Shown here: positions 46,939 to 64,000 of the stretch, one piece after another
Numbering within the stretch: the stretch's first letter is position 1
Layout: every line of letters starts with the position of its first letter
Assembly: GCA_963713975.1 (NCBI GenBank)
Contig: OY970218.1
Coordinates: forward strand, 1,472,001 to 1,536,000
Source: an uncultured Chloroflexia bacterium
GTDB lineage: Bacteria; Chloroflexota; Limnocylindria; Limnocylindrales; CSP1-4
Direction: 5' to 3'
DNA length: 64,000 nucleotides
Position numbers and translations under genes: made by a program
Notes under the pieces: generated by a model
What the model was told of the DNA's origin: nothing
The model's database searches: none
Seen by the model: the letters and a program-made list of their open reading frames with translations, nothing else

Positions 46939-46951
46939 ACGTTCAATTCGC

Positions 46952-47026
46952 TGGAGCCGACACTCGGATTTGAACCGAGGACCTGCTGTTTACGAAACAG
47001 CTGCTCTACCGCTGAGCTATGTCGGC
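46952..47026 (-). tRNA. tRNA-Thr (anticodon CGT) with encoded CCA
   Basis: Reverse complement reads GCCGACATAGCTCAGCGGTAGAGCAGCTGTTTCGTAAACAGCAGGTCCTCGGTTCAAATCCGAGTGTCGGCTCCA. It folds as a cloverleaf with anticodon loop TTCGTAA. Confidence 0.97.
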
Positions 47027-47352: not shown

Positions 47353-48564
47353 CTACTCGGCCTGCACGCCGGTCGGGTTCACGGCCCCGAACGCCGCGAC
47401 GCGCTCGGTTATCCGGGCGATGCGGCCGATGTTGGCGTCCGGCGGGACGTTGTCGGAGACGCCGAGGATCAGGCGCTCACCCGTGCCCAGGTCGTCGACG
47501 ACGGCGTCCAGGTAAGCCGTGAACTGCGGCTCGGTCATCGCATCGTCGAGGAGGGATACGGACGGGATCCCGCCCCAGATCGTCGTCTTGGGGCCCATCC
47601 GCCGACGCAGTTCCGCCAGAGAATCCAGGACCATCGGCTGCGCGCAAACAGACTCGGCGACGTCGAGCTCGCACTCCGGAAAGTGCGGCAGCAACTGGTG
47701 GTTCTCGCCGTCGGCATGCGTCGCGAGCAGCTTCCCGCGCTCCCTGAGGCGAGCGCCGACGATCCGTAGCCACGGCACGATCTCCTCGCTGAAGAACGCG
47801 GGCCAGGTGACCTGCTGGTCGTAGTTCGCCCCCCACCAGACCATTTCCGCACTGGACGCCAGGAGCGCGTCCAGGGCGGCGTCGAAGAACGGGCGCAGGC
47901 GATCGGCCAGTCGGTGGAGCGCCGCCGGGTCGTCCATGTACAGGTAGAAGAACGCCTCCATGTCCATCAGGTCGTGGAGGATCAGGTGGATGGGCGAGGC
48001 GGCGATCGGACCCTGCGCCACGGCGAGCCCGTGCGCCCCGATCCGGGCATGGAAGGCATCGTAGGCTGCCGGCGTGGGGATTACCTCGAGATGCTCGAAC
48101 ACCTGGGCCACCGCCTCGAAGTCCGCCTGCGTCGCGATCGGGCGCTTCTTGACGTAGGGGATTGACATGCCGTCGCGACGCATCGCGTCGGTCATCTCGA
48201 GGACTGCGGTGACCTCGCCCGCGGGGGTCCGGATCGTCGTCCGGTAGAGCTCTCCGTCCGAGACGAACTCGACCGGGAGGCCGGCAACCTCGACTCGGTA
48301 GGGGAAGTCCGGGTGGTTCTCGATCCCGAACCCGCGCAGGGCCCATTCGCCGGGATCCCGCGGCCGCGTGAAGTCCCCCCGCACGGCGTGGCAGGCGAAC
48401 CCAAAATGCCGGGCGACGTCGACCGTATCCGCGGATCGAAGGTTGGCCGCGAGCGAGCCGCGAGCCCGTTGCGCGATCAGCCAGAGATCCATCCGGGGGG
48501 CCCACGGAAGCCTGTCCGTCGGCGTTCCGGCAATGGCCCCCAGCATCCGTTCGCGGTCGTCCAT
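47353..48564 (-). CDS. URO-D/MtaA-superfamily protein (paralog 1)
   Basis: Motifs RERMLGAI.G.PTDRLPWAPR, TPAG, THADG, IWGGIP and ILGVSDNVPP. Confidence 0.85.
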   Translation of the reverse strand: MDDRERMLGAIAGTPTDRLPWAPRMDLWLIAQRARGSLAANLRSADTVDVARHFGFACHAVRGDFTRPRDPGEWALRGFGIENHPDFPYRVEVAGLPVEFVSDGELYRTTIRTPAGEVTAVLEMTDAMRRDGMSIPYVKKRPIATQADFEAVAQVFEHLEVIPTPAAYDAFHARIGAHGLAVAQGPIAASPIHLILHDLMDMEAFFYLYMDDPAALHRLADRLRPFFDAALDALLASSAEMVWWGANYDQQVTWPAFFSEEIVPWLRIVGARLRERGKLLATHADGENHQLLPHFPECELDVAESVCAQPMVLDSLAELRRRMGPKTTIWGGIPSVSLLDDAMTEPQFTAYLDAVVDDLGTGERLILGVSDNVPPDANIGRIARITERVAAFGAVNPTGVQAE

Positions 48565-48610
48565 GGCGTGCCTCCGCGCTGCTAGGGGAGCGTTCTTCAC
48601 CGCAATCTTC

Positions 48611-48623
48611 GCATATCATATGC
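48611..48623. promoter_or_regulatory. Palindromic candidate operator in a divergent intergenic region
   Basis: GCATAT-C-ATATGC, AT-rich against a GC-rich background. Confidence 0.5.
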
Positions 48624-48684
48624 CGTGAGCGGTGCAGCCACCGTGCACGCGGACGGGGCGAAGGCACCGCACGCTGGGGTCCGG

Positions 48685-49000
48685 ATGACGATATCCCGCA
48701 CGCACCACACCGGCCGGACGGTCGCGAGCGTGGACGGGTCGCTCGACCTCTCCGTCGGAATCCTCGGCCTTGAGGTGATGTCGCGTCATCGACCAGTCAT
48801 GGCTGGGCCAGTCGATCGGCGAGGAGGCCGCAATCGTGGACGCCGTCGACGTCACGATCCCGGGCTCAAACCTGGTGCTCCCGCTGTGCAAGTTCTCGGT
48901 CTCGTTCGACCGGGCCGGCCGCGCCCCACCCGTCGGCGTCCCCGACCCCGACGGCATCATCGTCGAGCTTTTCGAGACACCCGTCACAGGGGCGGGATGA
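48685..49000 (+). pseudogene. Degenerate VOC/glyoxalase-family gene
   Basis: The N-terminal HHTG.TVAS...SL......LGLEV and the C-terminal DPDGIIVELFE lie in different frames. The middle looks truncated. Confidence 0.7.
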
Positions 49001-49019
49001 CCACGCAAAGGAGGACGCC

Positions 49020-50089
49020 ATGGTCAGGCCCGGTACCTTCGAGGAGATCATGCGGCGCTCGTCGACCTTCGTCGACGACTACACGATGAGCCTGCAGTTC
49101 CCCGCCTGCGACTGGTCCGGATACTTCCTGTTTGCCGCCCTCGAGGGCGACGGCCCGTGCCAGGCGGTGAATCTCGGCATCTGGTCGGCCTCGCGAAGGG
49201 TGCCGAGCACGACGTGCCGCAGTGGACGGGCGATCCGGATCGACTGTTCGTCATCGCGTCGGTCATCTGCGACGGCGTCAGCTACCGGATGCTTGACGAT
49301 GCGTCGTACAGCCGGCGCGACCTGATCTACGCTCGCCAGGGTCTCGACCTGCAGGTCGCGGATGTCGCCCGTATCCGCGGAGCGTGGCCGTACTTCGAGC
49401 TCTACGTCCGCGACTCGGCGAACGACATCACCTACGAGGTCGAGGGTCGGGCGGGCTACGCACACTGGGTCCCGGATCACGTGCAGCGGGACAACCTCTA
49501 CTCGTACGTGTGCTTCCCTGACTTCGCGTTCCACGGCACCATCACCGTCCACGGGACGGTCCACGACGTCCGCGGGACGGGTGGGTTCGACCACGTGGCG
49601 GCGCGCACCGTCGGGAGCCCCAGCAGCCCGGGCGTCGGCTTCTGGCACTACGACCCCATCCTCTGGAGCGATGGCCACGTCTCGAACGGCCTGTTCTACC
49701 TCGGCCGCGAGGGTGAGCCCTATGTCCAGAGCGGCGTGATGACCGTGCCCGATGGTGGGTACCACCCGGCTCATCGCTTCACGATCCAGTACCTGGAACT
49801 TGGCGAAGGCACCGCCAACGCGGGCGCGACGGGTGCTCCTCAGGTGGTTCCGCGCCGATGGCGCGCAACGATTGAAGCCGACCACGGCACCCTGACGTAC
49901 ACGAGCACGCCGATCCTCGTCCGAGGCCCGGACGGTGCGCCAATCATCGAGCCCAACATCGCATTCCGCGCCGAAGGCGAGTTCCGCAGTCGCACCGGCG
50001 AGGTCCACCGCCTTACTGGCAAGGGTCACAACGAATACATGGGAGCAGCCTTCGACCCGTCGCGCATTCAGGCCACGAAGTCGTCATAG
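49020..50089 (+). pseudogene. Frameshifted gene for a ~356-aa beta-rich protein (tentatively AttH/tocopherol-cyclase-like); may be a sequencing error
   Basis: AAGGAGG RBS and ATG 49020. Coding-like sequence switches frame near 49180; adding one C gives GGC ATC CTG GTC (NLGILVGLAK). Motif GTITVHG....V.G.GGFDHV. Confidence 0.65.
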
Positions 50090-50185
50090 CCAAGCGCGAC
50101 CAGGCCCACGGCCGCCACGAAGAGCACGACGCCGATCCAAGGTCCCCAGCCGCTCGAACGCGGATGAGCGCAGATGTGCCCTGCG

Positions 50186-50812
50186 TCAGTTGAGGAGGCC
50201 CCGGACGAGGCTGACGGCGGCGGCGGCATCCGATGCGCAGCCGTCGGCGCCGATCTGGTCCGCGAACTCAGGAGTCACGGGCGCTCCGCCTACGACAACC
50301 CTGACGTCCTCGAGGCCGGCGGCTTGGACTGCTGCGACCACGTCCTTCATGCCGATCATCGTCGTCGTGAGCAGGGCGCTGACACCCACGACCGAGGCGC
50401 CATGGTGGCGGGCCGCCTCGACGAAGCGCTCGGCAGGGACGTCGACCCCAAGGTCGATGACCTCGATGTTCGCCCCTCGCCACATCATCGCGACCAGGTT
50501 CTTGCCGATGTCGTGAAGATCGCCCTTGATGGTGCCGATGACCGCCTTCGCCACGGGCTTGATCTCGGCCTTGACGAGCAGCGGCTCGAGCAGGGCCACC
50601 GACTCCTTCATCGCGCGCGCGCTGATGAGCATCTCCGGCACATAGATTTCGTTCGCGCTGAAGCGGGCCCCGGTGACCGCCATCGCGTCCGTCATCGCGT
50701 CGAGAATGGTCTGGGGCGCGAGCCCCTCGTCGATCGCCTCGCCGGTGATACGGACGGCGGTGGTCCGGTCGCCAGCCTCGATCGCGCTGGAGAGTGCCTG
50801 CAGGTCGGCCAT
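50186..50812 (-). CDS. Corrinoid (B12-binding) protein, MtaC/MttC-like
   Basis: Cap domain (G.RF..NEIYVPEMLISARAMK) plus GDLHDIGKNLV, DLGVDV, SALLTTT and VGGAPV. RBS AAGGAG. Confidence 0.95.
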   Translation of the reverse strand: MADLQALSSAIEAGDRTTAVRITGEAIDEGLAPQTILDAMTDAMAVTGARFSANEIYVPEMLISARAMKESVALLEPLLVKAEIKPVAKAVIGTIKGDLHDIGKNLVAMMWRGANIEVIDLGVDVPAERFVEAARHHGASVVGVSALLTTTMIGMKDVVAAVQAAGLEDVRVVVGGAPVTPEFADQIGADGCASDAAAAVSLVRGLLN

Positions 50813-50892
50813 CCGGTCGGATCTCCTTCGAGTGTCCTCCGGCCGACGAGGTTCGGCAAGTCGGCGCAACGGAGTTCGCGTGAAAGGACAGG

Positions 50893-50953
50893 TGGCCAAA
50901 TGGCTTGACCACTGTCGCCGCAGACGCTACCATCTCCGCCTACGGAGCGTCAA
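50893..50953. promoter_or_regulatory. Bidirectional sigma70-like promoter with FadR-type operator (copy A)
   Basis: Plus strand TTGACC(50905)-17-TACCAT(50928). Minus strand TTGACG(50953-50948)-18-TAGCGT(50929-50924). The 18-mer TGGCCAAATGGCTTGACC is identical to copy B. Confidence 0.75.
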
Positions 50954-51022
50954 TCCTGCCCGGGCCGGGGTCCGCCTACGGGACCGACGAGTGACGGGCC
51001 AGAAGGCTGAGGAGTCCTGAGG

Positions 51023-52189
51023 ATGCGGGCCACGACCTGGCGGGACTTCGACCTCACTCGCCGGCTGGAAAAGCTAGACCGAACGTTCGCGATGTCGGAT
51101 GTTGTGTCGGCCGACGACGTTCCGATCCTGGCGAACACGCCCTGCTATTTCGCCTTCTCTACGTTCGACAAACCCGACGACTACTTCACCAACCCCGCCA
51201 GCATGGTCGAGTACCAGGAGCGCGGCTTCCAGCGGCACCTCACCGAGATCAACGACGACGTCGTGCCCTACTTCATGCCCTGGTACGGCACCGGGGTGCT
51301 CGCCTCGGCCTTCGGGTGCGAGATTGCGACCGCACCGGGGCAGGGCAACGATCCGAGTGTGATTGGCCCCTCGGTGACCTCCATCGCGGATGCCATGCGC
51401 ATGCGGCTGCCCAACCCAGACCGCGACGGCTGGATGCCCCGGGTCCTCGCCACGATCGATCACGCCCGCGCGCACAGCGATCTGCCCGTGGGTCTCACCG
51501 ACATGCAGGGACCTCTGGACACCCTGGGCCAGATCTGCGGCCAGGTGCAGCTGTTCACGTGGATGTACGACGAGCCAGCTCTGGTCCACGACATGCTCGA
51601 CCTCGTGACGGACGCATTCATCGACTGGGTGAAGGTCCAGAAGGCGCATAGCGGCGACTCCCTCGAGACCAGCAACGGCCTTCAGGGCGTGGGCGCATCC
51701 GGCGTCGGCTGCTGGGAATCGGACGACGACATGACGATGCTAAGGCCCGAGATGTATGCCGAGTTCGTGGCTCCTCGCGTCGCGCGCATCTTCGATGCGT
51801 TCGGTGGCGGCAGCGTCCACTTCTGCGGCAAGGGGTACCAGCACCTGGACGCCATCCTCGGCCACCCGAGCGTCCGGGTGGTCAACAACTCGCCGATGGG
51901 CCAGTTCACGGGCCTCGGCGCCTTCCGCCGCCAGCTCGGCTCCTCGGTGAGCCTCCAGATCCAGGACATCGCACCGGTCGACGTCGAGGGGTACTACCGA
52001 CATCTGTTCACGGCGCTGGACGACCTACGAGGCGTGATGATCGTGCCGTTTGTCGTCGACGGCATCGGCATGGATTCGAGCGGGGGCTACGTCGTCCGGG
52101 ATGACGACCCGTTCGAGACCGCACGCCACCTGGTGGCGGTCGTCCGCGACTGCATCTCGATGAAGCTGGCGGGCACGCCCCTGCTCTGA
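51023..52189 (+). CDS. URO-D/MtaA-superfamily protein (paralog 2), candidate substrate:corrinoid methyltransferase
   Basis: Motifs PWYGTGVLASAFG, DMQGPLDT, MYDEP.LVH, SDDD...L.PEMY.EFVAP and VHFCG. Confidence 0.85.
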   Translation: MRATTWRDFDLTRRLEKLDRTFAMSDVVSADDVPILANTPCYFAFSTFDKPDDYFTNPASMVEYQERGFQRHLTEINDDVVPYFMPWYGTGVLASAFGCEIATAPGQGNDPSVIGPSVTSIADAMRMRLPNPDRDGWMPRVLATIDHARAHSDLPVGLTDMQGPLDTLGQICGQVQLFTWMYDEPALVHDMLDLVTDAFIDWVKVQKAHSGDSLETSNGLQGVGASGVGCWESDDDMTMLRPEMYAEFVAPRVARIFDAFGGGSVHFCGKGYQHLDAILGHPSVRVVNNSPMGQFTGLGAFRRQLGSSVSLQIQDIAPVDVEGYYRHLFTALDDLRGVMIVPFVVDGIGMDSSGGYVVRDDDPFETARHLVAVVRDCISMKLAGTPLL

Positions 52190-52261
52190 TCCCGTCCGGT
52201 GCCGTGTCGGTCACCGGTGAATTGACGATCCGCACGCTGCTGGACGAAGGTTGGTTTACAC

Positions 52262-53452
52262 ATGACGGACACCAGGTTCGACGACGCCCGGCCTACGATG
52301 AGCGGCCGGGAACGCGTGCTCACGGCCCTCGACCGTCGGGAGCCGGACCGGGTTCCGATCGAGTTCGGCTCCTCCCAACTCTCGAGCCTGCTGATCGGCC
52401 GGCCGTACGGTTACCGAGCGCTGTGCGAGTACTTGGGGGTGACGGACTATCCCGAGCCCGACATCAACTACTACCTGAACTCGGTGAAGAACATCGACGC
52501 GCGGATCATGCGTCGCTTCGGCGCCGACCTGCGCTGGGTCACGGCCGGCGCTCCGGAGGTCGAGCACCGGCCGGACGGCTCGCTGGTCGATGACTGGGGC
52601 ATGGTCCTCACGCCGACGGGCAACTTCAACGTGGTCGAGGACGCCAACACGCCGCTCCGCAACGCGACCTCGGCCGCGGAGATCGAGGCCTATCCGCTGT
52701 GGCCCGACCTCGACGACCCCCGGATCGCCGCCGGCAAGCGCGAGGAGGCGGCCGCCCATGCCGCCGCCGGCTTCGCCGTGGTCGCATCGCTCGGGCCGGG
52801 CGGGCGCCTGTTCCACACGTACTCCTGGCTGCGCGGTTTCGACTCCTGGCTGATGGACATGTACGACAACCCGCGCCTGTACCACGTCCTCGCCGAGCGC
52901 ATCACCGAGATCGGGATCGGCTACGTCGAGGCGTTCCTGCCATCGGTCGCCGCGGATGCCGACCTCGTCTACATGTCGGATGACCTGGGCACCCAGCAGA
53001 GCCTGTTGATGAGCCCCCAGGCCTACCGGACGTTCTGCAAGCCGTACCACAGCCGCCTGATCGCCGCGATCCGACGTGCCGCGCCGCGCGCGAAGGTCCT
53101 CATGCACTCCTGCGGAGCGATCTCGCAGGTGATCCCGGACCTGATCGAGATCGGCGTGGACGTTCTCAACCCCGTGCAGCCCAAGGCCGTCGGCATGGAA
53201 CCGCTGGTGGTGAAGCGCTCGTTCGGCAGCGAGCTCTCGTTCCTCGGGGGCCTGGACACGCAGGAGCTGCTGCCCTTCGGATCGCCGGAGGAGATCCGCG
53301 ACGGCGTCCGTGCGCTGATCGACGCCTACGCACCGGGCGGGGGATATATCTTCGCCCCCTCGCACGAGATCCTGCCGGAGGTCGAACCGTCGAACATCGT
53401 CGCGATGTTCGACGCGGCCCTCGAATTCGGCTCCCGGCCCGTCGACGGCTGA
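52262..53452 (+). CDS. URO-D/MtaA-superfamily protein (paralog 3)
   Basis: Motifs RERVL.AL..REPDRVP, DDWG, SDDLGTQ.SL.MSP, MHSCG, LNPVQP and GGGYIFAPSH. Confidence 0.92.
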   Translation: MTDTRFDDARPTMSGRERVLTALDRREPDRVPIEFGSSQLSSLLIGRPYGYRALCEYLGVTDYPEPDINYYLNSVKNIDARIMRRFGADLRWVTAGAPEVEHRPDGSLVDDWGMVLTPTGNFNVVEDANTPLRNATSAAEIEAYPLWPDLDDPRIAAGKREEAAAHAAAGFAVVASLGPGGRLFHTYSWLRGFDSWLMDMYDNPRLYHVLAERITEIGIGYVEAFLPSVAADADLVYMSDDLGTQQSLLMSPQAYRTFCKPYHSRLIAAIRRAAPRAKVLMHSCGAISQVIPDLIEIGVDVLNPVQPKAVGMEPLVVKRSFGSELSFLGGLDTQELLPFGSPEEIRDGVRALIDAYAPGGGYIFAPSHEILPEVEPSNIVAMFDAALEFGSRPVDG

Positions 53453-53472
53453 GTGGGACGCCGGGCCGGCCG

Positions 53473-54249
53473 TCAGACCATCAGCACCCCGCCGTCGATG
53501 TTGTAGGCCTGGCCGGTCACGACGCTGGCTTCGGGACTGGCGAGGTAGGTCGCGAGAACGGCGATCTCCGCCGGCTCGAGGCGCCGGCCGATCGGAGTCA
53601 GGGCGGCCTCGTACTCGTCGAGCGGCTTGTTGGCCCGCGCCGCGTGGTAGGCCATGTGCCGGTCGTTCGTCCTGGTGTTCACCGGGCCCGGGCAGATGGC
53701 ATTCACCGTGACGCCCTGTCCGGCGGTCTCGATGGCCAGCGTGCGGGTCAGCCCGAGCAGGCCGTGCTTGCTCGCCGAGTAGGCGGCCCCATGGAAGGTC
53801 CCGATCTTGCCGGCGATCGACGCGACCTGGATGATCCGGCCGTGACGGCGCTCGATCATGGGCCCCACGGCGTACTTGCTGAGCAGGTACGGTACGGTCA
53901 GGTTCACGTACAGCGTGAGGTCCCAGAAGGCGTCGTCGTAGTCCACGATCGGCCGAGGGTTGGCGCTGCTCCCGACCCCGGCGTTGTTGACGAGGATGTC
54001 GATCCGCCCGAGCTCCGCGACCGTGACATCGAACACCTGCCGGGCTGCGCCGGGCTCCGCGAGGTCGGCCGTCACGGTCACGCATCTGCCGCCCTCGCGC
54101 TCGATCTCCCGCCGTGCGGACTCCAACCCCTCGCCGTCCCGGGCGGTGAGCATCACGGCCGCGCCTTCCGACGCGAACGCCAGTCCGATTGCGCGGCCGA
54201 TGCCCCGGCTGGCTCCGGTCACGAGGGCGACCTGGTCGGTGAGGATCAC
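53473..54249 (-). CDS. Short-chain dehydrogenase/reductase
   Basis: Motifs TGASRGIG, NNAG, YSASKHG and NAICPG. RBS GGGAGAG before the GTG. Confidence 0.93.
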   Translation of the reverse strand: MILTDQVALVTGASRGIGRAIGLAFASEGAAVMLTARDGEGLESARREIEREGGRCVTVTADLAEPGAARQVFDVTVAELGRIDILVNNAGVGSSANPRPIVDYDDAFWDLTLYVNLTVPYLLSKYAVGPMIERRHGRIIQVASIAGKIGTFHGAAYSASKHGLLGLTRTLAIETAGQGVTVNAICPGPVNTRTNDRHMAYHAARANKPLDEYEAALTPIGRRLEPAEIAVLATYLASPEASVVTGQAYNIDGGVLMV

Positions 54250-54408
54250 GATGCTCTCCCGGCTATGCGGCCATGCGTCTGGACCGGCAATCCGTGGCCG
54301 GAGTGCCGCCGGTCGCCGCCCGGGCCGCAACCGCGCCCGGGCACCGGCCGTTATCGATCGAGCGCCCTCGGCTTCGCGGCGACGAGGCACCTCGGTCGAG
54401 ACGCGGGC

Positions 54409-55587: not shown

Positions 55588-55634
55588 CCCGTCCTCCACT
55601 GGCATCGGTCAGGCTGTGGGTGTGTGCTCGGGCA

Positions 55635-56345: not shown

Positions 56346-56392
56346 CGCCCCGCGCCCGGCAAGCCCGGCCGCCGTTCATGAGGCGGCGGCGG

Positions 56393-56782
56393 TCAGTCCG
56401 CTGCCTCGACCGCCTCGTCGGGCGAGTCCTGGTTGGGGGCGACGATCGACAGCCAGGCGAGCGGCTCGGGACCGGTCGGCTGGATCCGGTGGACGACGCC
56501 GCGCGGCACGTAGACCAGGCTTCCCGGCCCGGCCACGAAGTCAGGCTCGCTGCCGACGGTGAACGTCCCGCGCCCTTCCACGACCAGCATCGCCTCGTCC
56601 GCCTGGGGGTGTCGATGCGGTCGGTGGGGCTCCTCGCCGAACGGCATCCGGAGCAGCACGACCCGAAGCGCGCCGGAGGCCGCGAGCATAGCCCTCTGTC
56701 CGCCCAGCTCGAGCTTGCGCAGGATCTCGCCCGTATCGAGCACCGTGGCGTTCTGCGCCTCGTCAGCGGACACGTAGGGCAC
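56393..56782 (-). CDS. Cupin-domain protein
   Basis: Motifs PHRHPQADE...V.EG.G and VPRGVVH. Confidence 0.85.
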   Translation of the reverse strand: MPYVSADEAQNATVLDTGEILRKLELGGQRAMLAASGALRVVLLRMPFGEEPHRPHRHPQADEAMLVVEGRGTFTVGSEPDFVAGPGSLVYVPRGVVHRIQPTGPEPLAWLSIVAPNQDSPDEAVEAAD

Positions 56783-56842
56783 GGAGGGCTTCCTCTCTGG
56801 TCAGGGGCCTGTCGTCGTAGGGTTGACCGGACATGCGACGTG

Positions 56843-57964
56843 TCATGTCTGCACGAGCGTCGGGGTCTGGGCGACGATCCCGCGTGCGATGGGCAATCGG
56901 ACTGGGGCACCGTCGGCCTGCGACCGGTAGATCGCCGCCGCGATCTCCACGGACTTGCGGCCTTCCTCACCGGGCACGAGCGGCGGGCGCCCTTCGCGCG
57001 CGGCAGTCAGGAAGTCCTCGACCTGGGCCCGGTGGTAGTGGGTCATGACGTCGATCCGCGAAGTCCGCTCCCGGTCCTCGCGCTGCCATCCGGGCAGCAG
57101 GTCCTCCTCGCCGGTGATCGTCCAGATGTCGTTGACCGGTGGCTCCACAGCAGCGGTGACGCCGGCGATGAACGCGGACCCGGTCTCGGTCTCGACCCCG
57201 ACGGACGCACCGTTCTCGCCGTGGATGTGGATCCGGCCGAACAGGCCCGGCTTCTGGGAGTTACTCACGACGATGGAGCCGAGCGCCTGCCCCCGGAACC
57301 GGAGCACGGCGATGGCCGTGTCCTCGACCTCGATGTAGGGGTGATTGAGGTTCGCGCAGTACCCGAACACCTCCTCAACGGGGCCCATGAGCCACTGGAG
57401 AAGATCGAGGTGGTGGGTCACCTGGTTGACGAGGATGCCTCCTCCTTCTCCGGCCCAGGTGCCGCGCCACGGGTCGGCGGCGTAGTAGTCCTCGCCACGC
57501 CAGCCGAGCACGGTCGCGGTACCCAGGATCGGTCGGCCGACCTTGCCTTGCAGGATCGCCTCCCGTAGCCGCACCACCGGCTCGTACAGCCGCCGCTGGC
57601 TGACTACGCCCAGGAGCACGCTGTTCGCGGAGGCCGTTCGAATCATGGCATCGCATTCGTCCACGGTGAGTGCCATGGGCTTCTCGACGAGCACGTGCCG
57701 CCCGGACTCTGCGACGCGGATCGCCAGCCCGGCATGCGTGGGATGGGGAGTACAGATGCTGACCATCCGCACGCGGTCGTCGTCCAGGAGGGCGTCGATA
57801 CTGGTGTGCGCCCGGACCTCGTACCGGTTGGCGAACGCGGTCGCCCGCGCGGCGTCGGTGTCGAGGACGGCCAGGAACCGGGAACCCGGCAGGGACGCCA
57901 AGGCGTCGGCGTGAGCCGACGCGACCTTGCCCGTGCCGATGACGGCCGTGCCCACGCGCTCCAC
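56843..57964 (-). CDS. Gfo/Idh/MocA-family oxidoreductase
   Basis: Motifs IGTGKVA..H, ICTPHPTH, VEKPMA, WRGTW..EGGG.L.NQ..H.LD and EVEDTA. Confidence 0.93.
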   Translation of the reverse strand: MERVGTAVIGTGKVASAHADALASLPGSRFLAVLDTDAARATAFANRYEVRAHTSIDALLDDDRVRMVSICTPHPTHAGLAIRVAESGRHVLVEKPMALTVDECDAMIRTASANSVLLGVVSQRRLYEPVVRLREAILQGKVGRPILGTATVLGWRGEDYYAADPWRGTWAGEGGGILVNQVTHHLDLLQWLMGPVEEVFGYCANLNHPYIEVEDTAIAVLRFRGQALGSIVVSNSQKPGLFGRIHIHGENGASVGVETETGSAFIAGVTAAVEPPVNDIWTITGEEDLLPGWQREDRERTSRIDVMTHYHRAQVEDFLTAAREGRPPLVPGEEGRKSVEIAAAIYRSQADGAPVRLPIARGIVAQTPTLVQT

Positions 57965-58020
57965 GGTCCGGTCCTCAGGCTTGTCTGGTCCGCGACGGGA
58001 CGCAGGTCCCGATTCGGTCG

Positions 58021-59100
58021 TCAGGACGACGGGCCAACGAACAGGCCCTCCGTCTTGTCCGTGCCCTCGGGGACCACGTCGATATCGAGCATCACGGCCC
58101 CGCGTGGAAGGCTCGTGGTGAGAAGCGAGACCTCCCGCTCGGTGAGCACGCCGAGCACGATCAGCGGCTTCCTCGAGGCGATAGCCTGCAGCCTCGGCAC
58201 GAGCTCCTCGATAGACGGACCCGTGGGGTCGATCGTCATCTCGATGGCCCCAAGGGCCGGGATGTCGAGACCCCACTCCGCGAGATTGCCGTAGGAGTGG
58301 GTGTGGAGCACGTGGAAGTCGAAGGCATTCACGACGGCGGTCATGGAGGGAAGCAGGAACTCCCGGAAGACCGGATACGAGACGTTCACCGCGTAGTCTT
58401 CCTGCATCCGGATGGTGGTCCCGGGACTCCACAGCCCGTACTGGTTGCAGTAGCCGCCGGCCAGCGTCGGGAGCGCCTCGAGCTGGACGCGCGCCCAGTG
58501 GATGTACAGGTCCGTGATCTGGCCGAGCAGCGACCGGATCTCGCGCGGGTGGTCGTAGAACCCGATGTAGCAGCGCTCAACCCCCATCGCCGCGATCAGG
58601 AGGTCGCCGGGACCCCTGCTGATCATGTCCAGGGTGGGGATGCACTGGGCCGGGTAGTAGGTATCCACGATGTGGGCGAGGAAGTCCAGCAGTTTGTCGA
58701 GCCACTCCATCCGCGGGCTGAACCCCTGGTTCGGCTGGGCGAACCAGTCGTCACCCAAATACTCGACCGGCCACACGGTCTGGGAGACGGTCGACACCTG
58801 CATCCCGCAACCCGTGATGCCCACGAGCCACGGCACGCGGTGATACGGAAAGAGCGTGTTGAACGTCCCGCGGCCCCGGGTCGGCGACCCGGTGGCCGGC
58901 ACGATGGGTCGCGGCTGGAGCTCCTCGGGCAACACCGCATCGGGCTCCAGGAGCAGTCCATCGCACTCGGACCACGCGTCCGGGAGCGCCGGCACGTGAC
59001 GGAACCGTTGGGCCAGGCCGCAGTCGTCGTTGACGATCGCGTGCTCGGCCCGGCGCTCCCACCAGCTCCCGTGGAGGTCGATCAGGTCCCGGTCCGTCAC
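58021..59100 (-). CDS. URO-D/MtaA-superfamily-like protein (paralog 5, divergent)
   Basis: Motifs RGPGDLL.A.MG, FYDHP, QEDY..NVS...FREF.LP and LHTHS. Start uncertain. Confidence 0.7.
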   Translation of the reverse strand: MTDRDLIDLHGSWWERRAEHAIVNDDCGLAQRFRHVPALPDAWSECDGLLLEPDAVLPEELQPRPIVPATGSPTRGRGTFNTLFPYHRVPWLVGITGCGMQVSTVSQTVWPVEYLGDDWFAQPNQGFSPRMEWLDKLLDFLAHIVDTYYPAQCIPTLDMISRGPGDLLIAAMGVERCYIGFYDHPREIRSLLGQITDLYIHWARVQLEALPTLAGGYCNQYGLWSPGTTIRMQEDYAVNVSYPVFREFLLPSMTAVVNAFDFHVLHTHSYGNLAEWGLDIPALGAIEMTIDPTGPSIEELVPRLQAIASRKPLIVLGVLTEREVSLLTTSLPRGAVMLDIDVVPEGTDKTEGLFVGPSS

Positions 59101-59217
59101 TGCCGAGGAGCGCCGTGTGTGTGCCCCGGGCTCGGGGGCGGCCGGGCTCATGGCAGCAAGGGCGGGACGTCGCGGCCTGTCCGCCACGCGCCCTGCGACT
59201 CGAGTCCCCGCGACCGC

Positions 59218-59952
59218 CTAGCCGCCATCGGACGGCCGATCCGAGGGCAACGGCATCGCCGGCTGCTGGTAGCGCTGCCGCCCGTTCTCGAGGTGACGGA
59301 CCATCGCCTGCTGGGCGACCACCGGATCGCGCTGGAGGATCGCCTCGGCGACCTTCTTGAGATCGATCATGCCGAGCACCTCCCACTCGGGCCTCTGGCC
59401 GGTCATCACGCGGCTCTCGGTGAGCGCGGCACCGAGGCTCGCGACGATGGCCAAGAGGAGGGGGTTGTGCGCGGCAGTCACGATGAGTGAGTGGAGCCTG
59501 ACGTCCCGCGCCCGAATGGCGTCGGGATCCACGTCGTCAGCGGGAAAGGCCGCCAGCCAGTCTGCCACCTCGTCACGCTCGAGATCGGTCGCCCGTTCGG
59601 CGGCGAACGCGGCCGCGGATCCCTCCAGCAGCTCCCGGACCTCGAACAGCCAGTCGAGTCCGCCCTTGCTCGCGAGGAGCACCCTTGCCGGGCGGAGGAG
59701 GGGCCGAGCCTCGAAGTCGAGCACATAGGTGCCATCGCCCTGCCTCGACTCCAGGATTCCCACCATGGTCAGAGCTCGGATCGCTTCCCGAAGCGTCGGC
59801 CTGCTCACGCCGAGCTTGGCTCCGAGCTCACGCTCTGACGGTAGCTTCTGCCCGGGCTCGAGACGGCCCTCGATGATGAGGCGCTCGATCTGGTCGACGG
59901 TGTGGTCGGCGAGACCGCTCCGGTCGACCGTCGTGAATGGCTCAGTGGCCAT
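59218..59952 (-). CDS. FadR-subfamily GntR transcriptional regulator
   Basis: wHTH LPSERELG..LGVSRPTLREA...L...G.LESRQGDGTYV, and FCD domain D..LH..I..AAHNPLL. Confidence 0.93.
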   Translation of the reverse strand: MATEPFTTVDRSGLADHTVDQIERLIIEGRLEPGQKLPSERELGAKLGVSRPTLREAIRALTMVGILESRQGDGTYVLDFEARPLLRPARVLLASKGGLDWLFEVRELLEGSAAAFAAERATDLERDEVADWLAAFPADDVDPDAIRARDVRLHSLIVTAAHNPLLLAIVASLGAALTESRVMTGQRPEWEVLGMIDLKKVAEAILQRDPVVAQQAMVRHLENGRQRYQQPAMPLPSDRPSDGG

Positions 59953-59974
59953 CAATGGTGCTCCGCTGGGCAGA

Positions 59975-60035
59975 TGGCCAAATGGCTTGACCTTTTGCTG
60001 GGCCGAACCTACCATCAGGCGGCGTCCCCCGTCAA
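59975..60035. promoter_or_regulatory. Bidirectional sigma70-like promoter with FadR-type operator (copy B)
   Basis: Plus strand TTGACC(59987)-17-TACCAT(60010). Minus strand TTGACG(60035-60030)-18-TAGGTT(60011-60006). The 18-mer is identical to copy A. Confidence 0.75.
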
Positions 60036-60055
60036 CTGTCACAAGCAGCGCAGAT

Positions 60056-60090
60056 TCTGATATTGCATCAGATACGATATGTCGTATTGT
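60056..60090 (+). promoter_or_regulatory. Second promoter candidate with overlapping palindromes
   Basis: TCTGAT-N5-ATCAGA (60056-60072), ATACGA-N4-TCGTAT (60072-60087), and TTGCAT-16-TATTGT. Confidence 0.5.
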
Positions 60091-60202
60091 TGCGGAACGG
60101 AGACGGCCCACGTCGCAGAGCGGGGCCATCAGGAGGGTCAGCCGTGCTAATGCGCAATGACCAACCATCGGCGGGCATCCCGTCGGGACAGGTGCGCGCG
60201 GC

Positions 60203-61030
60203 ATGAGCGGTCCGGGGCCGCAGCCCGGCCTCTTCAGGCTTGATGGGCGGGTTGCCGTCGTGACCGGCGCGGCCTCCGGCCTGGGGCACTCGATCGCCGC
60301 CGGCCTCGCCTCCTTCGGCGCCATCGTGGTCGGTGGCGACATCAACGAAGCTGGTCTCGAGGCCACCGTGCAGCGGGTCCGGGCCCATGGTGGCACCGCG
60401 GTCGGCCTTCACTGCGACGTGGCCGACGAGGTCTCGGTCGAGGCCATGTTCGCTCGGGTGGACAGCGAATTCGGGCGCGTGGACATCCTCATCAATGACG
60501 CCTTCACGCCACCGATCCGCGTTGTCCCCGAGACATTCGGACTGGACGACTGGGAGCGGTCATTGCGCGTCAATCTGACCGGCTATTTCCTGTGTGCCCG
60601 CGCGGCCGGGAGGCGGATGATCGAGCAGGGCCAGGGCGGCAGCGTCGTGAACATCAGCTCCATCGCCGGGAGCTCCGGGATGGGGCGAGGCAACTTCGTC
60701 TACTCGGTGGCGAAGCACGGGGTGATCGGGCTGACTCGTGAACTGGCGGTCGAGTGGGCGAGGCACGGGATCCGCGTCAATGCCGTCCAACCAAGCCAGT
60801 TCCTGACACCGGCCCTCAAGGCATGGATCGATGGCCAGTCAGACCCGGAGGCATTCACCAAACACCTCCTTCGAGGTGTCCCGCTCGATCGCCTCGGCGA
60901 CCCGGACCTGGACATGGTCGGGCCGGTCGTATTCCTTGCATCTGACGCGGCCGCGATGGTCACCGGCGTCGTGCTTCCCGTGGATGGTGGCAACCTCGCT
61001 TTCAATGCAGGAGGCAGCAAGCTGTGGTAG
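60203..61030 (+). CDS. Short-chain dehydrogenase/reductase
   Basis: Motifs TGAASGLG, NISS, YSVAKHG, ELAVEW and PVDGG. Confidence 0.92.
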   Translation: MSGPGPQPGLFRLDGRVAVVTGAASGLGHSIAAGLASFGAIVVGGDINEAGLEATVQRVRAHGGTAVGLHCDVADEVSVEAMFARVDSEFGRVDILINDAFTPPIRVVPETFGLDDWERSLRVNLTGYFLCARAAGRRMIEQGQGGSVVNISSIAGSSGMGRGNFVYSVAKHGVIGLTRELAVEWARHGIRVNAVQPSQFLTPALKAWIDGQSDPEAFTKHLLRGVPLDRLGDPDLDMVGPVVFLASDAAAMVTGVVLPVDGGNLAFNAGGSKLW

Positions 61031-61056
61031 CGACAGCGGGCGGCGACGGAGCCACG

Positions 61057-62031
61057 ATGAACGCCTCCCGTCGTGGTCGTACTCGCGAGGCTCTCGGCCG
61101 CGTTTCCCGCGTGCCGGAGATGGGCCTGCTGGTGCTGGTATTGGTGACATTCACCAGCTTCTCGCTGATCAACGGCGGGTTTGCGAGCGGCCCGAACATC
61201 CAATCCCTGTTCATCACGATCGTCTACACGGGGATCGTCGCGGTCGGCGAGGCCATCCTCCTCATCTCAGGCGAGTTCGATCTCTCGGTCGGCTCGGTGG
61301 CGGGCATGGGTGGGATTGTCGCTGGCCTGCTGATGGCCACCGTCGGGTTGCCCGTACCCGTGGCGATGGCCGGGGCGGTCCTCGCGGGTGCGCTGGTCGG
61401 GCTTGCGAACGGCCTCCTGACGGTGAAGATCGGGATCCCGGCATTTGTCACCACCTTGAGCATGCTGTTCGTCGCCAAAGGCATCGGCTACGTGCTCAGC
61501 GGAGGCGATCCCGTCTATCCGCTGCCGGAGGGAGTCGGCACACTCGCCCGGACGGACATCCTCGGGCTGCCATCCTCCATCTGGGTCTTCTTGGCGATCG
61601 TCCTGGTCGCGGACCAGACGATGCGGCACACGACGTGGGGTCGGATGATCTATGCCACGGGCGGCAATCGGCTCACGACCCGCCTCGCGGGCATCAGCAC
61701 GGACCGCGTCAAGATCATCGCCTTCACCCTCTGTGGATCGCTGGCGAGCTTCGCCGGGGTCGTGCTGGTGAGCCGCCTCCAGCGAGCAGACGCGTCCAAT
61801 GGTCTGGGCTGGGAGCTCAACGTGATCGCCGCTTGCGTCGTCGGCGGCGTGGCGCTCGGCGGAGGGGTCGGGACCATCGCCGGCGCGTTCCTTGGTCTGG
61901 TACTCCTGCAGGGCGTTGTCCAGGGCCTCGTGATCATCGGCGTGGACTCGTCACTCCAGCCCGTCGTGGCAGGGGTCGTCCTCGTTGCGGCGGTCGGTTT
62001 CGACGCCTATCGACGGCGCCGGTTCGCGTGA
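61057..62031 (+). CDS. Sugar ABC transporter permease (RbsC-like)
   Basis: Motifs GEFDLSVGS, IPAFVTTL, GRMIYATGGN and ELNVIAACVVGG..L.GG.G. Confidence 0.93.
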   Translation: MNASRRGRTREALGRVSRVPEMGLLVLVLVTFTSFSLINGGFASGPNIQSLFITIVYTGIVAVGEAILLISGEFDLSVGSVAGMGGIVAGLLMATVGLPVPVAMAGAVLAGALVGLANGLLTVKIGIPAFVTTLSMLFVAKGIGYVLSGGDPVYPLPEGVGTLARTDILGLPSSIWVFLAIVLVADQTMRHTTWGRMIYATGGNRLTTRLAGISTDRVKIIAFTLCGSLASFAGVVLVSRLQRADASNGLGWELNVIAACVVGGVALGGGVGTIAGAFLGLVLLQGVVQGLVIIGVDSSLQPVVAGVVLVAAVGFDAYRRRRFA

Positions 62032-62179
62032 ACCTGCAGTCAATGGTCCCACGGGACCAGATCGACCCGTCCACATCCGGTAAGGAGGTGCCTCGGCGAC
62101 ACTCTCGGTGCTAAGAGGGAGTGCCCGATCGGGCCACCCGCGGTTGTGAACTAGTCAGGAATGGCCATTGGAGGAGCGC

Positions 62180-63307
62180 ATGAACTGGAACCGAACGATG
62201 GCGTTGCGGACGCTGGTTGCCATGATGAGCATCATGCTCGTTGCGGCCGCCTGCGGCAGCAGCACCGCCACGACGGCACCGGCCACCGAAGCACCGGCCA
62301 CCGAAGCACCGGCCACCGAAGCACCGGCCACCGAAGCACCGGCCACCGAAGCACCGGCCACCGAAGCACCGGCCGCCAACGCCATCTACACGCCGATGGC
62401 TGCCGCATCGTGCGACGTGAGCGGCAAGAACATCTACTTCCTGTCCGTGCTCAAGGGGCATCCCACGCTGCGCCTGTGGCAGCAGGGCTTCCTCGACCAG
62501 GCCAACGCGCTTGGCTACAAGAGCGCCACGATCGCCTCGCCGGATGACGCCGACTGGGCCAAGACGGTCGCCCTGGGCGAGCAGATCCTCGCGACCGAGA
62601 CCCCGGGCGAGTACGGCATGGTGTTTGGCTTTGTCGACCCGTCCGAGGCAGAGCTCATGAAGAAGTTCGACGACGCCGGCGTCCCGGTCGTCATCGGCCA
62701 TGTCGCAACGCCAGAAGGCACCTATCAGGGCGTCGAGGCGTGGGCAGCATTCATCTCCGAGAAGTGGGGCTCCGCCGCCGCGGACGCCATCGGCGAGAAG
62801 ATCGGCGGCACCGGCACCGTCGCGGTCACTGAGGGCTCGTTCAACGTCCAGGAGGACGCCGTCGCCAAGGCCTTCGCGGACCGGATGGCTGAGAAGTTCC
62901 CGAACGTGAAGGTGCTCCCGCCGCAGGAAGAGGGATTTGATCCCCCGGCCGCGATCGCCAAGGCCGTCGCCATCCTTCAGGCCAATCCCGACGTCGTCGG
63001 TGCCCTCTCGACGACCGGTGCCGGACCGGTCACGTGGGCCGGCGCTGCTGACCAGACCGGTCGCACCGTGTACGCCATCGGGCCGGACATGACCCGACCG
63101 AACCTTGACGCCGTCCGTGACGGCCTGATCTACGGCCTCGCCGCCCAGCCGGGCTACGAGGAGCACCAGGCCGCGGTCGACCTGATCACCAAGTCGCTGT
63201 GTGGCGAACCCGTCACCTACGCAAATGAGCTGCCGGCCCCGATTGTCTTTGCAGACGGGCTGGCCCCGTACTACGAGATCGTCGACAAGGTCGACGCCCG
63301 CAACTAG
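62180..63307 (+). CDS. Sugar ABC substrate-binding lipoprotein (RbsB-like)
   Basis: Lipobox AAAC, an (APATE)6 linker, then a type 1 periplasmic binding fold (GVPVV, GTVAV, ANPDV). RBS GGAGGAG. Confidence 0.88.
   Translation: MNWNRTMALRTLVAMMSIMLVAAACGSSTATTAPATEAPATEAPATEAPATEAPATEAPATEAPAANAIYTPMAAASCDVSGKNIYFLSVLKGHPTLRLWQQGFLDQANALGYKSATIASPDDADWAKTVALGEQILATETPGEYGMVFGFVDPSEAELMKKFDDAGVPVVIGHVATPEGTYQGVEAWAAFISEKWGSAAADAIGEKIGGTGTVAVTEGSFNVQEDAVAKAFADRMAEKFPNVKVLPPQEEGFDPPAAIAKAVAILQANPDVVGALSTTGAGPVTWAGAADQTGRTVYAIGPDMTRPNLDAVRDGLIYGLAAQPGYEEHQAAVDLITKSLCGEPVTYANELPAPIVFADGLAPYYEIVDKVDARN
62276..62374. repeat. Perfect 15-bp tandem repeat x6.6 (APATE linker)
   Basis: GCACCGGCCACCGAA six times (62276-62365) plus a partial copy. 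Confidence 0.97.
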
Positions 63308-63400
63308 CCGAACGCCGGTGGGCGCGGCGGGCTCGTCCCGTCCGCGTCCACCGGTACCAACCGGTCTGAGAGGACTCCCAGGGAACATGTCGTGGATGTC

Positions 63401-64000
63401 ATGAGTGACCATCAGGTTCCGACTGCGGCGGGGCAAGGGTCTGTCCAGGTCGAGGCACCGCCGACCTACGCCCTGCAGATGGACTCGATCGTCAAGACCT
63501 TCGGAGGCGTGCACGCCCTGCGTGGCGTGTCCCTGCAGGTCCGACGCGGCGAGGTCCACGGGCTCGTCGGCCAGAATGGCGCGGGCAAGTCCACGCTGAT
63601 GAAGATCCTCGACGGCTACTATCCCGCTGGATCATTTGCCGGAAGCATCCAAGTCGCGGGTGCCGAGGTGCGGCTGCGGTCCCCCAGAGACGCACAGGCG
63701 GTGGGGATCGCGATCGTGCCGCAGGAGACAACGGTCATCGAGGCAATGACCATCGCGGAGAATGTGCTGCTCGGCGAATTCGCGGCACGCCCATCCGGGC
63801 TGTTTGGTCGCAGTCGCGCGTCCGAACTGGCTGCCAAGTTCTTCCTCGACAACCATCTGCCGCTCGATCCCGATGCCCGCGTCGAGACCTTGAGCATGCA
63901 CCAGAAGCAGCTCGTGATGATCGCGAGGGCCCTGTACACCAAGCCACAGGTCCTGGTCCTGGACGAGCCCACATCATCCCTGACGTCCGACGAGATCGAG
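63401..64000 (+). CDS. Sugar ABC ATP-binding protein (RbsA-like), truncated by the window end
   Basis: Translated by hand: KTFGGVHALRGVSL..RRGEVHGLVGQNGAGKSTLMKIL...IVPQE...LVLDEPTSSLT. Confidence 0.92.
   Translation, partial: MSDHQVPTAAGQGSVQVEAPPTYALQMDSIVKTFGGVHALRGVSLQVRRGEVHGLVGQNGAGKSTLMKILDGYYPAGSFAGSIQVAGAEVRLRSPRDAQAVGIAIVPQETTVIEAMTIAENVLLGEFAARPSGLFGRSRASELAAKFFLDNHLPLDPDARVETLSMHQKQLVMIARALYTKPQVLVLDEPTSSLTSDEIE

Follow-up and report, generated by a model that had tools for sequence, protein, structure and literature searches.

A gene cluster with five UroD-superfamily paralogs, a corrinoid protein and a sugar-type importer in a Chloroflexia genome: a candidate for corrinoid-dependent demethylation of O-methyl carbohydrates

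Introduction

The locus described here raises the question of whether a corrinoid (vitamin B12-type) protein can take part in the removal of methyl groups from sugars. It is found on contig OY970218.1 of an uncultured Chloroflexia bacterium (assembly GCA_963713975.1), within a stretch of 64,000 nt (positions 1,472,001–1,536,000 of the contig, ~70% G+C) that was analyzed as a whole and is termed the window. From position 47353 to the window end there are five paralogs of the URO-D family (termed U1–U5), a gene for a corrinoid methyl-carrier protein, a gene for a FadR-type regulator, several sugar-type enzyme genes and an ATP-binding cassette (ABC) importer of the CUT2 type. The reading put forward is that the cluster carries out corrinoid-dependent demethylation of an imported O-methyl carbohydrate (sugar or sugar acid). 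This is unproven, and its chance of being correct is placed slightly under even. The cluster is probably catabolic and under FadR-type control.

Methyl ethers on sugars are common. Xylans, for example, contain 4-O-methylglucuronate, methyl sugars occur in pectin and in algal galactans, legumes and pines have pinitol, and actinobacteria have methylated polysaccharides. The methyl groups block ordinary catabolic enzymes. If the proposed reading is true, a cobalamin route explains how methyl groups are removed from sugars where oxygen is absent, and the methyl group enters one-carbon (C1) metabolism directly. UroD-superfamily corrinoid methyltransferases, whose range covers aryl ethers, haloalkanes and thiols, would also be extended to aliphatic sugar ethers. 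In the window there is a compact, testable gene set that comprises a binding protein, a carrier and five candidate transferases.

A literature search found no published case of cobalamin or corrinoid enzymes acting on methylated sugars, or of 4-O-methylglucuronate demethylation; this result is provisional, subscription journals being mostly uncovered. The only enzymatic sugar demethylation found was the O2-dependent cytochrome P450 route (PMC6292453, PMC10033563), and a study of bacterial pinitol use reports that no demethylase was found (PMC9788770). New in the present work are a shared promoter element that ties methyl-transfer genes to the importer, and the occurrence of corrinoid gene sets within sugar-acid operons.

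Results

Gene content of the cluster

Genes were picked by third-position GC content (GC3) and then by domain scans. Pfam was run on 24 open reading frames (ORFs) and NCBIfam on 21 ORFs in positions 47353–64000, and 61 window ORFs were scanned overall. Every gene listed in an earlier note on this DNA is present, by Pfam and NCBIfam, at or near the position assigned to it. A frameshifted gene (X), a VOC-like remnant, the shared promoter/operator element and a tRNA-Thr gene were absent from that note.

The genes, motifs, promoter element and recurring neighbourhoods given below are observations. A run on the minus strand mixes URO-D with sugar-type genes in the order fadR-U5-gfo-cupin-pseudo-kinase-U4-SDR1, and two operons are on the plus strand, U2-U3 and SDR2-permease-binding protein-ATPase. 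The cluster continues past the window end at 64000, where the importer ATPase is truncated. Up to that edge, full-length copies are present of the five URO-D genes, the corrinoid gene, both short-chain dehydrogenase (SDR) genes, the importer genes, gfo, cupin and fadR. GC3 of the core cluster genes is 0.81–0.93, with a mean of 0.878 as compared with 0.900 in the rest of the window.

The corrinoid protein

The corrinoid methyl-carrier gene (positions 50186–50812, minus strand; the frame extends to 50899) displays the Pfam domains B12-binding (1.1e-26) and B12-binding_2 (3.1e-17). In an alignment of 11 sequences, ten of them relatives from other loci, the DxHxxG, SxL and GG cobalamin motifs are invariant. 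The best solved relatives are the Moorella cobalamin-binding protein 1Y80 (3e-49) and 4JGI (1.4e-30), which are methyltransferase corrinoid proteins. Judged from these features the protein is intact, with cap and B12-binding domains and all cobalamin motifs, and the identification made in the earlier note is borne out by both Pfam domains, the motifs and the 1Y80 match. The start codon is an ATG at 50812, and the gene thus has a 210-bp divergent region in common with U2-U3; UroD-superfamily genes, U2 and U3, are found beside the corrinoid gene, divergent across 210 bp.

The URO-D paralogs

A tblastn search of the 64-kb window shows URO-D-like sequence to be confined to five sites. These are U1 (47353–48600, minus strand; Pfam URO-D 4e-11), U2 (51023–52189, plus strand; 1.7e-17), U3 (52262–53452, plus strand; 1.5e-33), U4 (54409–55605, minus strand; 3.4e-25) and U5 (58021–59187, minus strand, with a true start that is probably near 59100). 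U5 is a divergent paralog with no Pfam or NCBIfam match of its own. It is placed in the URO-D superfamily because 30 of 38 aligned members of its family match Pfam URO-D, its family profile aligns with that of U3 with an hhalign probability of 92%, and U2 matches the U5-family hidden Markov model (HMM) at 7.8e-24. A full HMMER search gave 674 representative relatives of U5 at E<=1e-3. The earlier claim of five URO-D genes therefore stands for four by Pfam, and for the fifth at the family level only.

The mutual identity of the five paralogs is 23–25%. HMM alignments separate them into two subfamilies, {U1, U3, U4} and {U2, U5}, and in each operon a member of the first is paired with a member of the second (U3 with U2, U4 with U5).

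The H-x-(C/D/H) dyad is the feature that all five paralogs retain, and in alignments it is found at the position of the His-x-Cys of MtaA. His282-x-Cys284 of U3 aligns with the H-x-C motif of MtaA (4AY7), which are its zinc ligands; HemE is without such a dyad at this position. U2 also displays H-x-C, and U4 displays His-x-Cys. The second ligand position is Asp in U1 (His-x-Asp) and His in U5 (H-x-H); in U2, U3 and U4 one Cys ligand remains. Where MtaA has its third ligand (Cys in the APGCG motif of 4AY7), the U3 family displays a nearly invariant His368, and U1 and U4 display Asp. A His-Cys-Cys site is present in none of the five paralogs in either HMM or MAFFT alignments. S-methyltransferases of the UroD superfamily are described as having His-Cys-Cys, and O-methyltransferases as having carboxylates or non-ligands in place of Cys (PMC10418091); zinc is present in some O-demethylases and absent from others (PMC13222342). 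The lack of His-Cys-Cys in the aligned sequences fits an oxygen-linked methyl donor.

Are these proteins true uroporphyrinogen decarboxylases? The family name in Pfam and the HemE chains among the weak PDB matches of U3 would speak for this. The hemE model TIGR01464 has a cut-off of 302.95 bits, however, and is matched by U3 at 35.7 and by U4 at 24.9 bits, with no match for U1, U2 or U5. For U2, U3 and U4 the methylcobamide:CoM and MtaA/CmuA models of NCBIfam outrank hemE, at 47.7–68.9 bits against cut-offs of 235–244; the MtaA/CmuA model TIGR01463 itself (cut-off 235.4 bits) gives 47.7 for U2, 57.5 for U3 and 68.6 for U4. U1 and U5 have no NCBIfam match at all. PDB sequence searches with U1, U4 and U5 (U5 also as a family profile) gave nothing significant. 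The alignment of U3 with solved structures covers the C-terminal half only, and the order of hits with the U3 family profile is 4WSH (a HemE), then CdmB, then MtaA, all of them weak. Because this order is weak and has HemE first, the overall score leaves methyltransferase-like versus HemE-like unsettled, and the conclusion that the proteins are not HemE-like therefore rests on motifs and context. Haem-pathway domains are found in 0 of the 61 window ORFs scanned, in agreement with the earlier note, and there are five copies that are highly divergent from one another. HemE function was rejected on the unmet model cut-off, the five divergent copies and the lack of haem genes in the window, and its probability is considered negligible. 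The statement of the earlier note that these are not true HemE proteins accordingly holds for model scores, dyad and context; the top solved match of U3 does not agree with it.

A shared promoter element and the FadR-type regulator

Two copies of an identical 18-mer, TGGCCAAATGGCTTGACC, are found in the cluster, each overlapping the hexamers TTGACC-17 nt-TACCAT. One copy of this combined element (50893–50933, plus strand) faces U2-U3 and the other (59975–60015, plus strand) faces the SDR2-importer operon. The 18-mer is an imperfect palindrome, TGGCCAA-N5-TTGACCA, the right half of which contains the TTGACC –35 box, with TACCAT following 17 nt on. The scan gave only these two promoter-like sites in positions 46800–64000; they are identical (TTGACC-17-TACCAT) and each is behind the 18-mer. 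Two copies of the 18-mer were reached in 0 of 100 shuffles. The presence of the element upstream of both operons ties methyl transfer to sugar uptake.

The element is read as a common operator that overlaps the –35 box. No further operator copies were found in other intergenic regions of the cluster, and a weaker palindrome at 62499–62517, inside the binding-protein gene, was set aside as probably due to chance. The regulator gene fadR (59218–59952, minus strand; the frame extends to 60396) encodes an N-terminal GntR winged helix-turn-helix domain (2.8e-22) and a C-terminal FCD domain (2.4e-20), the architecture of the FadR subfamily of GntR regulators. It has LldR, NanR, PdhR and UxuR-like NCBIfam matches, all below cut-off, and starts with an ATG that has a GGAG motif upstream. 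Since the fadR start lies 22 nt from the second copy of the element, a FadR-type protein would be the simplest regulator for the predicted operator.

A possible second operator is a perfect inverted repeat, ATACGA-TATG-TCGTAT (60072–60087), some 120 nt upstream of fadR, in an AT-rich patch that follows the shared promoter and precedes the SDR2 start.

Importer and sugar-type enzymes

The importer operon starts with SDR2 (60203–61030, plus strand; adh_short by Pfam), the stop codon of which overlaps the permease start. The permease (61024–62031, plus strand) is of the CUT2 type (BPD_transp_2 1.1e-36; AraH 3.3e-64, below cut-off). It is followed by a CUT2 lipoprotein substrate-binding protein (62168–63307, plus strand, with a likely start at ATG 62180; Peripla_BP_4 2.9e-24) and by the ABC ATPase (63392–64000, plus strand; ABC_tran 6.4e-29), which has XylG, AraG and GguA-type NCBIfam matches and is cut by the window end. 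Thus Peripla_BP_4, BPD_transp_2 and a double-ABC ATPase, the last truncated after its first ABC domain, are all present as in CUT2 systems. The binding protein has the lipobox LVAAAC and then an (ATEAP)n linker. Against the rhizopine binding protein model it gives 26 bits (cut-off 420), a match with family-level meaning only.

The linker is encoded by a 15-nt tandem repeat of ~7–9 copies at 62252–62397, directly after the lipobox.

The enzymes encoded on the minus strand include SDR1 (53473–54258, start approximate, frame to 54390; adh_short 6.9e-54), a small single-domain cupin (56393–56782; Cupin_2 3e-16) and a Gfo/Idh/MocA sugar dehydrogenase (56843–57964, frame to 58432; GFO_IDH_MocA by Pfam). 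All NCBIfam matches of SDR1 and SDR2 are below cut-off; they are KduD- or gluconate-5-dehydrogenase-like. The best PDB matches of the Gfo/Idh/MocA protein are 3Q2K (1.1e-44) and glucuronide-3-dehydrogenase 8TDI (2.7e-31), which are C3 dehydrogenases of uronic-acid sugars.

An inositol (iol) pathway was considered and is unsupported: the Gfo/Idh/MocA protein gives 137.8 bits with the IolG model (cut-off 355), and the only PfkB gene is a pseudogene. Domains of the IolE, IolD and IolB types were not found in the window. The earlier note had proposed an O-methylated sugar, sugar acid or inositol as substrate; sugar acids agree better with the accessory genes, and the inositol part of that proposal is not favored, given the IolG score and the missing IolE, IolD and IolB domains.

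A lone BPD_transp_2 permease gene at ~45900–46869 (plus strand), whose product has 29% identity to the cluster permease, was left out of the system. It has no binding-protein or ATPase gene beside it.

Related loci in other genomes

More than 3,400 relatives of U3 are found among 8,000 candidates scored, the closest with 87–89% identity. U3-type proteins occur in Chloroflexota, Actinomycetota, Bacillota, Acidobacteriota and in Asgard- or Bathyarchaeia-type archaea. A search of genome contigs gave 79 loci with U3 relatives; they come from many phyla, and their identity does not exceed 54%. In 13 of the 79 loci (5 of the 35 that have full 10-kb flanks) the flank includes a corrinoid gene, and in 7 of these 13 the midpoint of this gene is less than 1 kb from the U3-type gene, i.e. 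the two are immediate neighbours. Pterin_bind, the domain of pterin-binding methyltransferases, is found in four of the 13 loci and the activase RACo in four; six have either one, and both are present in L023 and L047. At least one carbohydrate-type neighbour family is found in 29 of the 79 loci, and 19 have more than one URO-D ORF within 7 kb. U2/U5-type ORFs are present in four loci and in two of these directly beside the U3-type gene.

Several loci will be used to show the types of neighbourhood. In Paradesulfitobacterium ferrireducens (L047) the order is DeoR, ASRT, CUT2 substrate-binding protein, ATPase, permease, URO-D, URO-D, corrinoid protein, Pterin_bind and RACo. A 4.8-kb contig of a Chloroflexi metagenome-assembled genome (MAG; L011) carries on one strand a 2-keto-3-deoxy-6-phosphogluconate (KDPG) aldolase, a PfkB kinase, URO-D, a corrinoid protein and Pterin_bind. 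L069 displays SorC regulators, a phosphotransferase system (PTS) permease, URO-D, a sugar-phosphate isomerase, a class II aldolase, a corrinoid protein and an FGGY kinase, and L063 has CUT1 permeases, a heparinase II/III-like protein, the U3-type gene, RACo and a corrinoid protein. The hexuronate enzyme UxaE sits between URO-D genes in L067. In a cultured Chloroflexota strain (L080) Gfo/Idh/MocA, sugar-phosphate isomerase, ROK, GntR and CUT2 importer genes are around a U3-type gene, and there is no corrinoid gene. The neighbourhood check suggested earlier shows that corrinoid and sugar-acid contexts recur for U3 relatives, although the majority of loci have no corrinoid gene (see Discussion).

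A tree was made of 72 U3-type ORFs together with U1, U3 and U4 of the window; seven loci with ORFs of <300 residues were left out. The corrinoid-adjacent members are scattered over the tree (9–10 label changes, compared with a shuffled mean of 12.1). The clade of the window U3 (local Shimodaira-Hasegawa-like support 99%) includes two Chloroflexia genes and L006 (Spirochaetota), without a corrinoid gene nearby, and L007, which is corrinoid-adjacent.

Long forms of U3 relatives display Peripla_BP_4, SASA esterase or sulfatase in 3/4 matches. A relative of U5 (P0299, 604 aa) has GntR, FCD and a U5-type URO-D in one protein, in the same order as fadR-U5. The long forms, P0299 included, may be fusions or merged gene calls, and adjacency is recorded either way. 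In a plasmid collection a U3 relative was found in only two records; the corrinoid protein matches many.

Other neighbourhoods were also seen. An Actinomycetes MAG (L004, positions 7908–17391) carries TctB, TctA, URO-D, TctC, a corrinoid protein, Pterin_bind, an FAD-linked oxidase and a CCG protein, a set that could serve to demethylate a methoxy carboxylate, with a glycolate-like compound as product. In L051 (5197–15703) a U3-type gene is found between a GH38 alpha-mannosidase gene and MetK, AhcY, PfkB and an MtnA-like gene; this locus links the U3 family with the methyl cycle or with methylthio-sugar salvage. A Thorarchaeota (Asgard-type) locus (L028, 1216–8959) and an unclassified archaeal one (L037, 10001–18241) have a U3-type gene with RraA-like, ATC-hydrolase-like and aminotransferase genes, and also glycyl-radical enzyme, PfkB and KDPG aldolase genes.

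Decayed features and the left edge

Three features of the cluster are in decay. A PfkB/2-keto-3-deoxygluconate (KDG)-kinase-type sequence (55662–56208, minus strand) is present by tblastn as pieces in three frames, 56208–55975, 55870–55745 and 55736–55662. It has sustained at least two frameshifts and has lost ~110 N-terminal residues, the N-terminal third; partial matches to NCBIfam KDG-kinase models remain. The dead KdgK-like kinase of the earlier note is thus a genuine pseudogene.

The conserved hypothetical gene X (49020–50089, plus strand) has a good ribosome-binding site before its start at 49020. A –1 frameshift near 49170–49185 interrupts it: the 53 N-terminal residues are read in the 49020 frame, and the remainder in the 49157 frame. 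The homologues P0121 and P0123 are uninterrupted; the homologues compared are 82–87% identical. X belongs to a family of 53 with a conserved HWVPDH motif, and no Pfam, NCBIfam or PDB match was found. Between U1 and X there is a startless frame of 73 codons (48779–49000, plus strand; GC3 0.88), with no start codon before its last third. It is probably a gene remnant; the end of its translation (‘...DPDGIIVELFE’) resembles the C terminus of VOC/glyoxalase-type proteins.

A tRNA-Thr(CGT) gene (46952–47026, minus strand) is directly left of U1. A genomic island is not claimed, the cluster being at the 5′ side of the tRNA gene and its GC3 being 0.878 versus 0.900.

Farther left in the window, a protein of 1193 residues (2709–6290, minus strand) has ~680 residues without a domain hit, which precede a GT8 glycosyltransferase domain and an O-methyltransferase domain of the TylF type; the organism itself may make O-methylated glycans. 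A pair of SulP-STAS transporter paralogs lies in tandem at 27880–31487 (minus strand), and after them comes a gene for a CLC channel on the opposite strand.

Discussion

The proposed pathway

The chemical steps, the substrate, the methyl acceptor and the pairing of repressor with operator are all inferred. The lipoprotein-anchored CUT2 system would import a methylated carbohydrate-like compound. The metal of a U1/U3/U4-type enzyme would then hold the ether oxygen while Co(I) of the carrier takes the methyl group. The zinc in MtaB activates methanol, and the ether activation proposed here follows the same logic. U3 is the best candidate for this first methyltransferase (MT-I), and other positions or substrates may be the targets of U1 and U4. 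A second methyltransferase (MT-II) would move the methyl carried by CH3-Co(III) onto an acceptor, which is probably tetrahydrofolate, with regeneration of Co(I). This enzyme could be a U2/U5-type paralog or could be encoded outside the window, and the two are equally possible; the U2/U5 type is suggested because each operon pairs it with a U1/U3/U4-type gene. The Gfo/Idh/MocA protein, the SDRs and the cupin would process the freed sugar towards a KDG-type route.

Of the candidate substrates, a methylated sugar acid, hexuronate or other, agrees best with the accessory genes, and a methyl sugar or methyl cyclitol is possible. A sugar acid is favored over a cyclitol because of the FCD type of the regulator, the KDG-kinase relic, and the KDG/KDPG, UxaE, TRAP and GntP genes in related loci. 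If a single substrate has to be guessed, 4-O-methylglucuronate leads, with low confidence.

As to the B12-dependent pathway claimed in the earlier note, the carrier, the dyads, the shared promoter and the related loci speak for it, and the lack of an MT-II or activase in the window does not. A more general possibility, and a doubtful one, is that U3-type proteins are a widespread, unrecognized group of corrinoid carbohydrate O-demethylases that act without O2, with the U2/U5 type in the window replacing a pterin-binding MT-II and reactivation proceeding without a cluster-encoded RACo.

Points against the reading and alternative explanations

A number of observations weigh against carbohydrate O-demethylation by this cluster. 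A pterin-binding methyltransferase (Pterin_bind) is found in 0 of 61 window ORFs, with a best tblastn E-value of 0.82 over the 64-kb window, and a RACo or RamA activase in 0 of 61, with a best E-value of 0.11. As the window ends within the cluster at 64000, both genes may be located past that point or elsewhere in the genome; the activase of the cdm system is encoded at a separate locus (PMC13222342). An RNA search found no cobalamin riboswitch or other regulatory RNA. The best solved sequence match of U3 is HemE 4WSH (3e-10), compared with 1.2e-4 for MtaA 4AY7, and the metal-ligand assignments come from alignments at 20–25% identity. The PDB relatives of the binding protein are sugar-binding proteins, with weak matches (5e-10 or worse) that are silent on methylation. 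No corrinoid gene is in the flank of 66 of the 79 U3-relative loci, including the closest, L002 and L003, and also L080. A fusion of U3 to a B12 domain was not found among the long forms, which is weak evidence. Finally, with three decayed features, namely the kinase pseudogene, the frameshift in X and the remnant ORF, part of the pathway may have ceased to work. An extreme form of the last point, that the cluster is a decaying remnant with no working pathway, would also account for the MT-II and activase that were not found in the window. This has a low probability, as the URO-D, corrinoid, SDR, gfo, cupin, fadR and importer genes are all full length, their GC3 is similar to that of the rest of the window, and the two identical promoters are intact.

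Corrinoid methyl transfer could also be real with a donor other than an O-methyl carbohydrate, the sugar genes handling another moiety or a neighbouring pathway. The donor could then be an S-methyl sugar such as 5-methylthioribose, a methoxy acid that is small and aliphatic, or an aromatic compound with methoxy groups, free or as its glycoside. The TctABC carboxylate transporter found with corrinoid protein, Pterin_bind and glycolate-oxidase-like genes in L004, the methionine-salvage genes MetK, AhcY and MtnA in L051, the TRAP transporter in L057 and the Opp/Dpp-type ABC ATPases in 14 loci all point in this direction, as do the one Cys ligand retained in U2, U3 and U4 and the known donors of the superfamily, which are aryl ethers, haloalkanes, thiols and selenides (PMC10418091; PMC13222342). 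The importer, however, is of a monosaccharide/polyol type, the promoter element is common to the importer operon and U2-U3, the His-Cys-Cys site of thiol methyltransferases is in no paralog, and ring-cleavage or aromatic-acid genes are absent from the window ORFs scanned. Another donor is for these reasons judged unlikely, at roughly one chance in a handful. Somewhat less likely again is an explanation in which most or all of the URO-D paralogs work on sugar acids independently of cobalamin, e.g. as decarboxylases or other metal TIM-barrel enzymes, and the corrinoid protein has a role with no more than one of them, or in a reaction unrelated to them. This would suit the many loci that have no corrinoid gene and are yet amid sugar genes (L010 and L001–L003 as well as L080), the fusions to sulfatase, SASA esterase and a sugar-binding domain with none to B12 domains, and the fact that the top PDB sequence match of U3 is a decarboxylase. 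It does not readily explain why a corrinoid gene, where present, is usually the immediate neighbour and is accompanied by Pterin_bind or RACo in 6 of 13 loci, why corrinoid-adjacent members are spread across the tree and form no single clade, why the methyltransferase H-x-C dyad that HemE lacks is kept, or why the corrinoid gene and U2-U3 have the 210-bp divergent region in common. Demethylation of an imported O-methyl carbohydrate is retained as the working proposal for the cluster.

Comparison with known systems

The aryl O-demethylases (Mtv, Odm and Vdm of acetogens, and MtoABCD of Methermicoccus shengliensis) also combine a UroD-superfamily methyltransferase with a small cap/Rossmann corrinoid protein, and passage of the methyl group via CH3-Co(III) is expected as a further shared feature (PMC8630106; PMC13222342). 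They differ in acting on phenyl methyl ethers in strict anaerobes and in having a pterin-type MT-II and an ATP-dependent activase. The window has neither of these two; it has five paralogs at 25% identity or less, carbohydrate-type accessory genes with an importer, and a host that is a monoderm bacterium of 70% GC.

Type 1 mlp clusters (Kountz and Balskus, PMC10418091) are similar in having several UroD-superfamily paralogs, one corrinoid protein and no tetrahydrofolate methyltransferase. They are reported from obligate anaerobes only and have a Ram/RACE activase, His-Cys-Cys sites and sulfur/selenium genes, none of which holds here. Membership in this type was rejected, as there is no activase in the window and no His-Cys-Cys site.

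MtaA, MtbA and MtsA are members of the same TIM-barrel family; their H-x-C is aligned with that of the paralogs (4AY7), and their models are the best NCBIfam matches of U2, U3 and U4. The window proteins reach only 47.7–68.6 of the 235.4 bits, however, and their third ligand is not Cys. MtaA, MtbA and MtsA use coenzyme M, and nothing in the cluster suggests coenzyme M.

The cdmBCA chloromethane system of Acetobacterium dehalogenans resembles the cluster in its UroD-superfamily MT-I and corrinoid protein, with the activase elsewhere in the genome (PMC13222342). CdmB (9RUI) differs in that it is described as zinc-free and acts on haloalkanes, and the MT-I tree of the same paper includes clades with unknown substrates (PMC13222342). 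The U3 family profile matches CdmB over a C-terminal stretch only, at 1e-6.

The P450 demethylation of 6-O-methyl-D-galactose of porphyran likewise removes a methyl ether and so opens ordinary catabolism, but it needs O2 and releases formaldehyde (PMC6292453, PMC10033563). By the present proposal, no O2 would be needed and the methyl group would go to a C1 carrier. The P450 enzymes have no sequence relationship to the cluster enzymes. HemE has the Pfam family and the fold class in common with the paralogs; the cluster differs in scores that do not reach the hemE cut-off, in its metal dyad, in its five divergent copies and in having no haem context.

By this comparison the cluster is not an mlp cluster of type 1, an MtaA equivalog or a HemE; with two of the usual components missing from the window, it would work like the corrinoid O-demethylase systems.

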